The notes under the pieces were generated by a model. The model made no database searches and was not told the DNA's origin. It was given only the letters and a program-made list of their open reading frames with translations. Made by a program: the position numbers and the translations under genes. A stretch of DNA of 64,000 bases from Staphylococcus phage S6. Below are positions 16,827 through 21,743 of the stretch, piece after piece; position 1 is the stretch's first letter, and every line of letters starts with the position of its first letter. The stretch lies in sequence record LC680885.1, one strand, 5' to 3'.

Positions 16827-18920
16827 ATGGAGATGAAATGGATAATGTTAGGTAAAGAAATAATGAGAAGATCTGAAATAATTTACGATGATACGGATAT
16901 AAAAACTGTTTTAAATTTAGATCCGGATAAAGATTACATAAATGAAGAAGAGGATATCGAATATATCTGTCCTAAACATGGTAAACAAAAAAGAAAAATA
17001 AAACAACATTTAGAAAAGAAAGGTTGTTTCGAGTGTCAATACGATAATAAGTCTAAAAAGACTAAAGGTAAAGATTTATTAGGAGAGTTTTACAAAAGAT
17101 TTGGAGAAGATGTTTTTGATTATCCAGATATAGAAGAAGATCGTGTATATTCATCTAGAGAAAAAATAAAGATAGTTTGTTTTAAACATGGAGAGTTCAC
17201 TAGACAAATTAGAGAACATAATACAAAAGCTAAAATATGTGATAAATGTAAATTAGAGGATGGAGGAAAAGATTTTAAAAAGAAACAATTTAAAGAAAGA
17301 TTGAGAAATGAAAATTATGAAATGTATAAGATTACCGATTTTTCTGAGACTGTATTTGAAGGGTTAACTAATTTTATGTATGTTAGATGTAAAAAACATG
17401 ATACGATTAACAAAATACAACCTAGATCATTACTAAGTAAGAATAGTAATGGGTGTTCAAAATGTAGAAGTGAAAAACTATTAAAAAGTAGAAGATCTAA
17501 TAACAAGGTATATAACGTGGAAGATATTTTTAACATATATAAACAAAAAGGAAATCTTTTAAATACTGCGACTAAATATCTTGAAAATTTAAATCTCGAA
17601 CAAAGAAAAGAGTTATTCTTAATGATATCCAAACATAATTTTGGAAATAAGTATGACTATTCTTTAATAGAAAAAGAAAAAAATAATTTTAAATCTAGAG
17701 ATAAAGTAACACTAATATGTAAAGAACATAATGTCGAATTTAAACAAAATATATCACACCACTATAAAGGTAGGTTAGGTTGTGATAAGTGTAAAAAGGA
17801 TAATGTGTCTAAAAGTATATCTGACTCATACAGATTTTCTAAAAGAACAGATATAAAACCTGAAGAATTAATAAAAGAAGTGGATAATGAAAATTTCAAA
17901 GATAATGAGATAAGAAAAATAGTGAGATTAATGAATTTTGAAGATAAAGGAAAATATTACAGATTATTAGGGAAAAAGATTAAGGGAGATAAATATAACT
18001 ATGATAAATTAGTGTATAACGGTGATAGTGTTCAGGTAACTATAACATGTAAAAAACATGGAGATTTTAAACAGGTAATATACGATCACTTTTTCCAAGA
18101 TCATAATTGTAATAAATGTTCAAAGATCGTATCCAAACAAGAACTTAAATTAAGTAATGATTTGGAAAAATATTTTACAGTTAAAAATTCTTTAAGAAGA
18201 ATATTTGAGGATAAAAGAAAAGAAATTGATATATTTATCAAAGATATTAATTTAGGTATAGAGATAAATGGTCTAAGATGGCATTCAAATGATATAAAAA
18301 AGGAGGATGAAAATAATTTTGCAAGATACCATCAATTTAGTAAAATGAATGAATCTGAATGTTTAGGTATAAAATTATTAAACTTCTATGACGATGAAAT
18401 AAATATAAAGAAAAATGAAATTTCTTATTCTAAAATAATGAAAGAAATTTTATTATTTAATAATTCCTTTAATATTAAAAATATAGATTTAAAAGATTTA
18501 GAGATGAAAAAGATATCTTATAATTTCATAAAGAAATTTTATAAGAAACATTCACTAGAATTCTTTAATGAAGAAGATAAAAATTATAGAGGAATATTCT
18601 ATAAAGGTTATATAGTTTCCGTATTCTCATTTAATAATAAGAACGAATGTCATAACTATAGCACGAATTACAATTTAAATGAAGATATTGATTTAATATT
18701 AGATGCTTACCCTAATACCATTTTTAATATTAGATCAGATTCTTATAATAGATATAAATTTCAAGATTATGGGTTCATTACAATAAATAAAACTCTACCG
18801 CAATATAGAAATTTCAATAAAAAAGGTTTAACTAAAAATAGATATAAAAGATTAGAAAAGAGGGATACTAATAATCCTAATAGAATTTATGATTGTGGTA
18901 GAACTATCATGATTTACTAA
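16827..18920 (+). CDS. homing-endonuclease-like protein with five tandem CxxH...CxxC zinc modules and C-terminal Vsr/DUF559-like PD-(D/E)xK nuclease domain
   Basis: 697 aa. Modules ICPKHG...GCFECQ, VCFKHG...ICDKCK, RCKKHD...GCSKCR, ICKEHN...GCDKCK, TCKKHG...NCNKCS. C-terminus IDIFIKDINLGIEINGLRWHS...ECLGIKLLNFYDDEI resembles Vsr (FVVDEYRCVIFTHGCFWHH...ELGWRVLIVWECAL). The start may be the ATG at 16845. Confidence 0.55.
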   Translation: MEMKWIMLGKEIMRRSEIIYDDTDIKTVLNLDPDKDYINEEEDIEYICPKHGKQKRKIKQHLEKKGCFECQYDNKSKKTKGKDLLGEFYKRFGEDVFDYPDIEEDRVYSSREKIKIVCFKHGEFTRQIREHNTKAKICDKCKLEDGGKDFKKKQFKERLRNENYEMYKITDFSETVFEGLTNFMYVRCKKHDTINKIQPRSLLSKNSNGCSKCRSEKLLKSRRSNNKVYNVEDIFNIYKQKGNLLNTATKYLENLNLEQRKELFLMISKHNFGNKYDYSLIEKEKNNFKSRDKVTLICKEHNVEFKQNISHHYKGRLGCDKCKKDNVSKSISDSYRFSKRTDIKPEELIKEVDNENFKDNEIRKIVRLMNFEDKGKYYRLLGKKIKGDKYNYDKLVYNGDSVQVTITCKKHGDFKQVIYDHFFQDHNCNKCSKIVSKQELKLSNDLEKYFTVKNSLRRIFEDKRKEIDIFIKDINLGIEINGLRWHSNDIKKEDENNFARYHQFSKMNESECLGIKLLNFYDDEINIKKNEISYSKIMKEILLFNNSFNIKNIDLKDLEMKKISYNFIKKFYKKHSLEFFNEEDKNYRGIFYKGYIVSVFSFNNKNECHNYSTNYNLNEDIDLILDAYPNTIFNIRSDSYNRYKFQDYGFITINKTLPQYRNFNKKGLTKNRYKRLEKRDTNNPNRIYDCGRTIMIY

Positions 18921-19160
18921 TATAATACAGTGACATTAATTTGTCACTGTATTATAATTATTTTTTTTTTTATTTAGGATTTATAAATAACTATTTTAAT
19001 ATAGTAATAGATATATTTCTATTTACTATATTCGTAAATTCTTTTTCTTACTCAATCTCGTAATTTGTTTTGCGTCAAGCAGGTTACATGGGCCTCCTAC
19101 CCGTATAATATTGTACTACACCTAAGTGGATCATAGAAAATGGTCCACTTTGTTTATCAT

Positions 19161-19233
19161 TGTCCCATAGCTCAACGGTAGAGCGATCGGCTGTTAACCG
19201 GTTTGTTGAAAGTTCGAATCTTTCTGGGACAGC
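19161..19233 (+). tRNA. tRNA-Asn (anticodon GTT)
   Basis: Cloverleaf: acceptor TGTCCCA/TGGGACA, U8, D-arm GCTC-AACGGTA-GAGC with GG, anticodon stem ATCGG/CCGGT, loop CTGTTAA, T-arm GAAAG-TTCGAAT-CTTTC, discriminator G. No encoded CCA. Confidence 0.8.
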
Positions 19234-19716: not shown

Positions 19717-19793
19717 ACATAGTTTTAAATATATATTATAAAAATGAGATATAATTGTCTCAAATACTTTTATAATATGGAGATGAAAAAGAT

Positions 19794-21743
19794 ATGATAG
19801 GTTCAAAGATTAGAAAATCATTAAATGAAAAATTTGGTTATCATTATAAGTTTTTATTAGAAGATTTTAAGAAAGATTATGATTTAAATAATGATACAAT
19901 TATGGTAACTAAAGAAGCTAGTGACATCACAAAAGAATATAAAATAAAATCATTAAAGTATACTAAAGACATTGAAAAATTAGACAAAGACTTTAAGAAA
20001 GAGGAAGAAGAATTAAATATTAGAAAATCTAGAATTTTTAATTTAGATGAATTAGGTTTAGATGAAGACCTTAGAAACATCTGTAAGTATATAGACAGCA
20101 CTACTAAATTAAAAGTAAAAGTTAGAGAGTATAAAAAAGAAAGTAAAGAAAATATTGAATTCTTTTACAAAAATTTTGCTAATTATACTTATAATAGTGT
20201 AATATATGATATGAGTCAGTTTAAGCCATCAACAATTAGATCTAACCAGAAAGTTATATGTAGAAAACATGGTCCTTTCTTTACCACTCCAGTAGATTTC
20301 TTTATAAAGAAAAAAGGATGTCCGGTGTGTGAAAAAGAAACGGAAGAAGAAAAGAAAGATACTAGTTGGAAGGATGAATTCATAGAAAATAAAAATGAAA
20401 AAATATATCAAGAAGTAAAGGAAGAGAAAGAAAAGGAAAATAAAAAATCTAAAAAAGAAAAGGTAGATGTGAAAAAAGAAAATAAAAAACTTTTAGATGA
20501 AGTATTAAATCCACCTGAATTAGGATATTATAGAGAACCGGATAAGATACCTAATACTGAAAAAGAAAATGAGAGATTCTTGAAGAGTATTAAAGAAATA
20601 GATAGTAAATTTGAAGAACCTAAAGAAGTTGAAGAACCAAAGGAAATTGTTAAACCTAAATTAAATAAAAAGACAGTTGATCAAATAATAGGAGACGATA
20701 ATACTAATCTAAGCAGAAAAATTAGATATATAAATAAAAATATTTATACAGAAAATGAAAGACAAGATTTCTATAAAAAATTAACTGACCGCAAACATGG
20801 TAAAAATAAATATAAGATTGATAAATTTAGACCTAAGACAGTTAAAGAAAAACAAGAAGTAATTTGTCTTAAGCATGGTCCTTTTAAAGTAACAGCTGAA
20901 GAATTATTAATTAGAGGTAGACAGTGCCCTAAATGTTCTTCTACTAGTACTTCTATAACAGAAACTTTTGTAAGAGAATATATTCAGAGTTTAGATTTTG
21001 AAGTTAATAATTATGAAATAGAAGATTTAATCAAACCTTATGGCGTTGATATAGTTATTGAAAATTTAAAATTGGCTATTGAAGTTCAAGGTATCAAATA
21101 TCATTCATCTGAAACACGATCAGAGGCTTCAAATAAATATCATCAATTAAGAAAATTAAAAATGCTAGAAAATAAAGGTTATCGTTTATTGAATATATAC
21201 GATGATGAAATTCCTAATAAGAATAAAGGAATTGGTTGGGATAAATTTGGTAGATTCTTATCTGAATTAATGATGTTTGATAAAAGATTTGATATTGAAG
21301 AAATGGATACTAATTCAATAAAAATAGATACAATTAGTTATTACAAATTCAGAGAATTCTTTGAAAACTCTAGACAAGAATTTGTTACTGGTGATACAGA
21401 ATATAAAGGAGTGGTTTATAAGAATAAATTAATTTCAGTATTCTCTTATAATAAAGAAACACGAGAATGTCATAACTATCATACTATGACAAATAATAAA
21501 TTTGATTTAGAATTAATTAATAGAAAATACAAAGATTTAAAATTTATAGTTAAAAGAGATTCTTATGTGGCGTATAAAATGAAAAGTCATGATATGTTAC
21601 CAATAGCAGAAACGGAACCTGATTTCTGTAACTTTTCAAAGACTAATGGAAATAGAAAAAATAACTATATAAGACAAAAAAGAAAGGATGAAAATGATAA
21701 AAACAAAGTATATAACTGTGGAAATATAATTTTTGTATTTTAA
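19794..21743 (+). CDS. homing-endonuclease-like protein with two CxxH...CxxC zinc modules, Lys/Glu-rich linker and C-terminal Vsr/DUF559-like nuclease domain (paralog of 16827-18920)
   Basis: 649 aa. ICRKHGPFF...GCPVCE and ICLKHGPFK...QCPKCS modules. VDIVIENLKLAIEVQGIKYHS...ENKGYRLLNIYDDEI. The last 150 aa resemble those of ORF 16827-18920 (CHNY...YNCG motifs). The upstream region repeats aatggagatgaaa, as before the first copy. Confidence 0.55.
   Translation: MIGSKIRKSLNEKFGYHYKFLLEDFKKDYDLNNDTIMVTKEASDITKEYKIKSLKYTKDIEKLDKDFKKEEEELNIRKSRIFNLDELGLDEDLRNICKYIDSTTKLKVKVREYKKESKENIEFFYKNFANYTYNSVIYDMSQFKPSTIRSNQKVICRKHGPFFTTPVDFFIKKKGCPVCEKETEEEKKDTSWKDEFIENKNEKIYQEVKEEKEKENKKSKKEKVDVKKENKKLLDEVLNPPELGYYREPDKIPNTEKENERFLKSIKEIDSKFEEPKEVEEPKEIVKPKLNKKTVDQIIGDDNTNLSRKIRYINKNIYTENERQDFYKKLTDRKHGKNKYKIDKFRPKTVKEKQEVICLKHGPFKVTAEELLIRGRQCPKCSSTSTSITETFVREYIQSLDFEVNNYEIEDLIKPYGVDIVIENLKLAIEVQGIKYHSSETRSEASNKYHQLRKLKMLENKGYRLLNIYDDEIPNKNKGIGWDKFGRFLSELMMFDKRFDIEEMDTNSIKIDTISYYKFREFFENSRQEFVTGDTEYKGVVYKNKLISVFSYNKETRECHNYHTMTNNKFDLELINRKYKDLKFIVKRDSYVAYKMKSHDMLPIAETEPDFCNFSKTNGNRKNNYIRQKRKDENDKNKVYNCGNIIFVF

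Follow-up and report, generated by a model that had tools for sequence, protein, structure and literature searches.

We analyzed a 64-kb stretch (GC content, 25.4%) of the Staphylococcus phage S6 genome (LC680885.1), referred to as the window, in which two genes on the + strand, here called gene 1 and gene 2, are predicted to encode free-standing homing endonucleases (HEs). The gene upstream of gene 1 had been assigned in the initial annotation, made from the sequence alone, to the beta' subunit of RNA polymerase (RNAP), and the annotation of relatives agrees, describing an RNAP beta' fragment. Positions 14000-24000 of the window are 99.3% identical to Staphylococcus jumbo phage PALS_2, and eight more Staphylococcus jumbo phages show 84-98% matches. 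The nine relatives compared by blastn were PALS_2, DC4, MarsHill, Madawaska, LY01, SA1, Machias, PB50, and AH12. PALS_2 carries gene 1 under the label "ATPase involved in DNA repair" and gene 2 as a "hypothetical protein". Within the window, the two genes are the sole members of their family. They comprise the following features:

16827-18920, + strand: gene 1, longest open reading frame (ORF), 697 amino acids (aa)
16845-18920, + strand: gene 1 from the annotated start, 691 aa, with the ATG at 16845 as in the PALS_2 and DC4 annotation
16829-16836, + strand: extended Shine-Dalgarno (SD) sequence of gene 1, GGAGATGA
16854-18131, + strand: zinc-module array of gene 1, five units of ~66-70 aa, spaced 70, 70, 110, and 110 aa
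18135-18470, + strand: nuclease domain of gene 1, Vsr/DUF559/EDxHD-type, residues ~437-548
18471-18917, + strand: C-terminal GNAT-fold, Mom-like domain of gene 1, with degenerate motifs
19794-21743, + strand: gene 2 ORF, 649 aa, with orthologs annotated in 9/9 relatives
19779-19786, + strand: extended SD sequence of gene 2, GGAGATGA
20145-20342, + strand: zinc module 1 of gene 2 (regular expression and MAFFT alignment)
20751-20948, + strand: zinc module 2 of gene 2 (regular expression and MAFFT alignment)
20949-21293, + strand: nuclease domain of gene 2, Vsr/DUF559-type, residues ~386-500, aligning with the gene 1 nuclease (Pfam DUF559, 1e-3; MTES_1575, 1.3e-3)
21294-21740, + strand: C-terminal GNAT/Mom-like domain of gene 2, degenerate, ~150 aa, with a ratio of nonsynonymous to synonymous substitution rates (dN/dS) of 0.10

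Both ORFs lie where the initial annotation had placed them, and its claim of paralogy held: BLASTP aligned 328 C-terminal aa of the two proteins at 32% identity (E=5e-43), and judged from this similarity they are paralogs. The leader AATGGAGATGAAA, which it had described as common to both genes, is real, with a 13/13 match at 16826 and a 12/13 match at 19776; five matches occur in the window at ≤1 mismatch, compared with 0.36 expected. It is, more precisely, the extended SD sequence GGAGATGA, located 11-12 nt before the start codon, and the likeness between the two upstream regions reaches further than this leader. The position of the SD sequence and the PALS_2 and DC4 annotation therefore place the start of gene 1 at 16845, which is likely its true start codon (ATG). 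None of the genomes has a disrupted copy of either ORF.

Both proteins consist of three parts: a zinc-module array, a Vsr/DUF559-type nuclease, and a C-terminal Mom-like GNAT domain. An earlier two-part description, in which the ORFs ended in the nuclease domain, had overlooked the last of these, a GNAT-fold domain of ~150 aa that follows the nuclease in both proteins. The earlier counts of zinc units were reproduced by a regular-expression search for CxxH-x(15-19)-CxxC, which found exactly five in gene 1 and two in gene 2, and a MAFFT alignment showed that the modules are repeats of ~66-70 aa, each composed of a helix and the motif CxKHGxF…GCxKC. In gene 2, a K/E-rich linker of ~140 aa separates zinc modules 1 and 2. 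An AlphaFold2 model of modules 2-3 of gene 1 had a predicted local distance difference test (pLDDT) value of 81. The gene 1 array matched Pfam DUF4379 (3.9e-5), Zn_ribbon_HMPTM (2.7e-4), and DUF723 (0.086), all below the curated cut-offs; DUF4379 and DUF723 are sub-threshold in the window proteins and above threshold in homologs, which also match CapR.

The nuclease motifs quoted in the initial annotation are present as DIFIKDINLGIEINGLRWH / GIKLLNFYDDEI in gene 1 and DIVIENLKLAIEVQGIKYH / GYRLLNIYDDEI in gene 2, and in an alignment of 62 sequences that includes both genes, the catalytic D, E, G, H, and K columns do not vary. The residues E (SKxE), D468, N480, and H485 of gene 1 align to E170, D196, N208, and H213 of I-Bth0305I. 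The proposed fusion of a Vsr/DUF559-type nuclease, akin to that of I-Bth0305I, to zinc modules in tandem was borne out by matches to Pfam DUF4379, DUF559, and MTES_1575 and to PHROG "homing endonuclease" families, and by a match of the family profile to the I-Bth0305I structure (PDB 3R3P) at E=6e-6.

The GNAT fold of both proteins is related to Mom of phage Mu, although Pfam Mom gave no match to either window protein at E≤1. The Mom-family motifs NHIQG, R-F on strand 4, the GGAS(K) loop, and ADRRW are kept in 0/11 Staphylococcus jumbo-phage proteins and in 48-57/60 other homologs. Four of the five conserved motifs of the family are thus lost in all 11 Staphylococcus jumbo-phage copies, and DNA modification by the degenerate domain is therefore unlikely in these copies.

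The genes are arranged in cassettes with the following features:

16689-18923, + strand: gene 1 cassette, the mobile unit, with its own hairpin, promoter-like box, SD sequence, and ORF
16696-16727, + strand: terminator-like hairpin of the gene 1 cassette, a 13-bp stem followed by a T-run, repeat family D1
16751-16775, + strand: promoter-like box of gene 1, 25 nt, 88% identical to the box upstream of gene 2 (D7)
18921-18956, + strand: ancestral beta' terminator, now terminating gene 1 (terminator scan)
19678-19716, + strand: hairpin with a T-run upstream of gene 2, repeat family D1, 74% identical to the terminator after gene 2
19727-19739, + strand: exact match to the Bacillus phage AR9 early-promoter 13-mer, AAATATATATTAT, upstream of gene 2
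21750-21779, no strand assigned: bidirectional terminator common to gene 2 and a convergent 227-aa gene (terminator scan)

Gene 1 is a mobile element by its behavior. Its cassette is an insertion that separates the beta' stop codon (16686-16688) from the ancestral beta' terminator; in MarsHill, Madawaska, and SA1, the hairpin of this terminator, at 18921-18956 in the window, comes immediately after that stop codon. In the junctions, which were read directly, MarsHill and Madawaska have 4 bp in place of the gene 1 stretch, and SA1 lacks it. Gene 1 is thus an exact 2235-bp indel with clean junctions; the beta' ORF keeps the identical stop codon with or without it, and according to the terminator scan, the hairpin at 16696-16727 now ends the beta' transcript. 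The presence/absence polymorphism anticipated for both genes was found for gene 1: PALS_2 and DC4 have it at 99% identity, and six relatives (MarsHill, Madawaska, SA1, Machias, PB50, and AH12) lack it. No such polymorphism was found for gene 2, which all nine relatives carry. In LY01, the slot of gene 1 is occupied by a 41%-identical allele with four modules, in which the zinc array is 27-29% identical to that of gene 1 and the nuclease and GNAT parts are 50-65% identical. Compared with PALS_2, gene 1 shows five nonsynonymous changes and one synonymous change, which are too few to interpret. We also searched for a homing target or immunity signature at the 3' end of beta' (final 240 nt, ten genomes) and in the mismatch density of both flanks; only three scattered single-nucleotide polymorphisms (SNPs), without a gradient, were unique to the genomes bearing gene 1, and no target could be proposed from them.

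The slot of gene 2 is occupied and syntenic in 9/9 relatives, an arrangement that the initial annotation had itself named as evidence against mobility. Gene 2 is 91-95% identical within the PALS_2 group, and the protein in this slot has 51% identity in SA1 and 35% in Machias, PB50, and AH12, compared with 86-98% for the flanking proteins, which points to rapid divergence or allele replacement at gene 2. Gene 2 is under purifying selection, with an overall dN/dS of 0.08-0.15; the nuclease is its most constrained part (0.04), and the linker has the highest value of any region (0.23). Gene 2 thus appears to be a paralog that has become fixed in the clade of Staphylococcus jumbo phages, with purifying selection maintaining its function. 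Its present role may be homing against divergent lineages or a co-opted function, and we favor neither. In a search for the deeper ancestry of gene 2, we found no family member next to the g242 homolog of Bacillus phage AR9 or that of Listeria phage LPJP1, two genomes in which synteny is too eroded for a firmer conclusion.

A 2-kb tract at 20234-22234 diverges by 5-8% between the window and DC4, and both of its flanks diverge by 0-0.5%; the last three-quarters of gene 2 and the greater part of the convergent 227-aa gene fall within it. We considered a recombination tract bounded by a homing endonuclease gene (HEG) and rejected it: the patch begins inside gene 2 and not at a cassette edge, and indicates mosaicism only.

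A further site of variation lies between the two genes. The initial annotation described a "tRNA island", which is actually one tRNA and one pseudo-tRNA:

19161-19233, + strand: tRNA-Asn(GTT), the sole tRNA detected (ARAGORN; Rfam, 67.7 bits)
19238-19310, + strand: Leu-like pseudo-tRNA with anticodon UAA and without a long variable arm, read from the sequence

The tRNA-Asn site has three states at one identical junction: a tRNA, empty, or an HEG paralog (relatives' loci L002 6164-7720, L003 ~4003, and L005 ~8113). The window, PALS_2, and Madawaska have the tRNA, and MarsHill and LY01 have nothing at this site. In DC4, a third paralog of 483 aa with three modules is found in a 1.56-kb cassette that lies exactly at the tRNA-Asn site and has its own promoter-like region, SD sequence, and terminator; the DC4 authors named it a Hef-like homing endonuclease (PMC10638138). 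The pseudo-tRNA has intact acceptor and T arms and a G at position 33, and the DC4 paper (PMC10638138) describes it as a pseudo-tRNA-Leu. A 103-nt homolog of the pseudo-tRNA in Machias and PB50 scores above the Rfam threshold for tRNAs, and 19238-19310 received no call from ARAGORN or Rfam; the tRNA cluster of the PALS_2 lineage is therefore in decay.

Upstream of each gene, a hairpin and its T-run are followed by a 25-nt promoter-like box and then by an SD sequence, in identical order. As a promoter query, we used the 13-mer annotated as an early promoter in the related Bacillus phage AR9. The sequence AAATTTATATTAT at 16754-16766, inside the gene 1 box, has one mismatch to this 13-mer, the gene 2 box includes it without a mismatch, and the window contains five exact copies of AAATATATATTAT, at 19727, 22577, and 34556 on the + strand and at 43950 and 54672 on the - strand. 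These five copies therefore suggest that the virion-RNAP promoter class of AR9 also operates in Staphylococcus jumbo phages. Both genes would accordingly be candidates for early expression.

The family to which the two genes belong is large. An exhaustive search returned 15,555 cluster representatives at E≤1e-3 and 6,538 at E≤1e-10, and tblastn found matches in 235 phage records, many of which are labeled "Hef-like homing endonuclease". NCBIfam and PADLOC gave no match for either gene, and IMG/VR added only a single remote locus as further genomic context. Relatives lie between or inside conserved genes; one is located between gp24 and gp23 of a T4-like phage, and another splits the DNA polymerase gene of PA5oct. 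An hhalign comparison of a profile including both genes (profile A1) with Ac3_190 of fHyAci03, an annotated Hef-like HE of a T4-like phage, gave a probability of 100% (E=7e-63, 273 columns). Taylor et al. 2011 (PMC3239194) placed Hef-type HEs in the Vsr-like EDxHD family together with I-Bth0305I, and Hef of phage U5 is, in the account of Sandegren et al. 2005 given in PMC2988022, an experimentally supported free-standing HE that cleaves nrdB.

The two genes share with Hef-like HEs a homologous core of nuclease and Mom-like GNAT domain, the occurrence as free-standing cassettes amid conserved genes, and alternative occupants of one slot in related phages. Both genes have their own expression signals. 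Gene 1 abuts the RNAP beta' stop codon and is polymorphic; gene 2 shows no such polymorphism. Unlike other Hef-like HEs, the Staphylococcus copies have a degenerate Mom-like domain, and the number of CxxH…CxxC modules is two to five in these copies, three in PA5oct gp172, and zero in the T4-like fHyAci03 protein. I-Bth0305I (PDB 3R3P; PMC3239194) differs in that it is encoded by a group I intron, has NUMOD/helix-turn-helix (HTH) DNA-binding regions, lacks zinc modules and a GNAT domain, and has an Asp222 that aligns to a conserved His in the family of genes 1 and 2. The zinc array had initially been regarded as an unrecognized type among HEs; it is instead covered by Pfam DUF4379/DUF723/CapR, and its relatives are annotated as Hef-like. 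A 2025 report in Nucleic Acids Research (PMC12350094) described a "large unrecognized outgroup" of HEGs in phage group I and II introns, in which an EDxHD/Vsr domain comes after three to five CapR/DUF4379/DUF723 modules (~60 aa); the intron hosts include RNAP beta' genes (virion RNAP), and these HEGs occur in jumbo phages. Genes 1 and 2 resemble these HEGs in having several such modules before a Vsr-like nuclease, in a jumbo phage and near RNAP beta', but they are free-standing and carry an additional C-terminal GNAT-like domain outside the described architecture. They also resemble phage Mu Mom (PDB 8BV8) and the jumbo-phage Mom-restriction endonuclease (REase) fusions, which Iyer et al. 2021 (PMC7824862) read as restriction-modification-like, in joining a GNAT/Mom fold to a restriction-endonuclease-fold domain in a jumbo phage, while the conserved Mom-family motifs are gone in all Staphylococcus jumbo-phage copies. 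The kind of system is already known and very common, and the window adds two members with a degenerate Mom-like domain.

We propose that both genes belong to the free-standing Hef-like branch of the Vsr-type (EDxHD) homing endonuclease family; to this homing-endonuclease explanation we give a probability of about 0.65, which rises for gene 1 and falls for gene 2. The zinc-module array of the DUF4379/DUF723/CapR type would read a long DNA target, which the Vsr/DUF559-fold nuclease, with its catalytic residues intact, would cut. The Mom-like GNAT domain, still constrained after the loss of its motifs, may be structural instead of catalytic. In a mixed infection, the gene 1 product would cleave the allele that lacks gene 1, close to the beta' 3' end, and repair of the cut by recombination would then copy the gene 1 cassette into that allele. 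Several points weigh against this proposal. The fifth EDxHD residue (I-Bth0305I D222) aligns to a nearly invariant His (YH), H501 of gene 1, and not to Asp, in a gapped part of the alignment; this His adjoins an invariant Lys. Matches to the AR9 promoter are weakly enriched, with 12 at ≤1 mismatch compared with 5.9 expected in a genome of 25% GC. The SNPs around the gene 1 insertion show no clear immunity signature or co-conversion gradient, and no empty gene 2 site was present among the nine relatives. The tie to the experimentally tested Hef stands on the annotation of other authors and on Taylor et al., and for both genes the cleavage site, the target, and the homing event are predictions.

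Alternatively, the proteins might be conflict nucleases, in which a Mom-REase fusion attacks host or superinfecting-phage DNA while the Mom domain modifies the phage's own DNA, or they might have been domesticated for the exclusion of competitors. Exactly such a fusion was described in jumbo phages by Iyer et al. (PMC7824862), whereas the loss of four of the five Mom motifs in 11/11 Staphylococcus copies (kept in 48-57/60 others) makes self-protective modification unlikely. The fixation of gene 2 under strong purifying selection, which is unexpected for a purely selfish element at fixation, and the early-promoter-like boxes on both genes suit a conflict role, while the dispensability of gene 1, absent in six relatives, and the lack of a defense-family match in PADLOC do not, and long multi-module DNA-binding arrays would suit the recognition of rare sites better than bulk degradation. 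We regard a conflict or domesticated role as rather doubtful, and it chiefly concerns gene 2. Decay is quite improbable. Former HEs that no longer cut, kept by chance or for DNA binding or regulation, would fit the degenerate Mom-like domain, the nuclease and zinc Pfam matches below the curated thresholds, and the 5:1 ratio of nonsynonymous to synonymous changes in gene 1 against PALS_2, with so few changes that it has little meaning. However, such relics would hardly keep intact ORFs in every genome, invariant catalytic D, E, H, and K columns, and a nuclease as the most constrained part of gene 2 (dN/dS 0.04), and the clean and recent indel of gene 1, like the third cassette specific to DC4, points to elements that are still moving.

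The placement of related HEGs in introns of virion RNAP beta' genes (PMC12350094), and an insertion in the same beta' gene of relatives ~430 bp upstream, annotated as an intron in Machias, raise the question of whether the two genes are intron- or intein-associated endonucleases inside a self-splicing intron of the RNAP beta' or a tRNA gene. This is very improbable: Rfam detected no intron at the gathering threshold in the window and four relatives and none at E≤1 in 16600-19900, in line with the initial description of the genes as free-standing. The presence of gene 1 leaves the stop codon of the beta' ORF unchanged, and a separate hairpin, promoter-like box, and SD sequence precede each gene. 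Among the relatives, the beta' insertion and the slot-1 gene are found together, each alone, and both missing, which makes up all four combinations.

The beta' insertion corresponds to window positions 16260-16276, in the gene for the middle domain of beta', and is 150-346 bp long in LY01, Machias, PB50, and AH12 (relatives' loci L005 4841-5186, L006 3629-3970, L008 3645-3793, and L009 3629-3971); the allele of the window is uninterrupted, and no Rfam group I or II model matched the insertion at threshold. Collaborative homing, in which this insertion (16260/16276) would be linked to the slot-1 gene, was considered and rejected, as all four combinations were found and Rfam detected no intron.

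On this basis, both genes can be reannotated as Hef-like homing endonuclease family proteins, although they reveal no new kind of system. The locus offers matched filled, empty, and alternatively filled sites in culturable S. aureus jumbo phages and thus constitutes a natural test case for homing. The large EDxHD branch is biochemically unstudied, and the locus is suited to testing homing in such nucleases; the set of loci will also be useful for the role of the degenerate Mom-like domain and for DNA reading by the zinc-module array. Such elements are sources of mosaicism between jumbo phages that are therapeutic candidates.

Two observations concern the region downstream of gene 2. A 694-aa ORF at 22654-24738 on the + strand has 90-99% identity in most relatives and 28-29% in LY01 and SA1, and its dN/dS of ~0.3 is above that of its neighbors, making it a second hypervariable gene at the locus. 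At ~24834-25034, a 200-bp spot has 18-19 mismatches to PALS_2 and to DC4 in near-identical surroundings.

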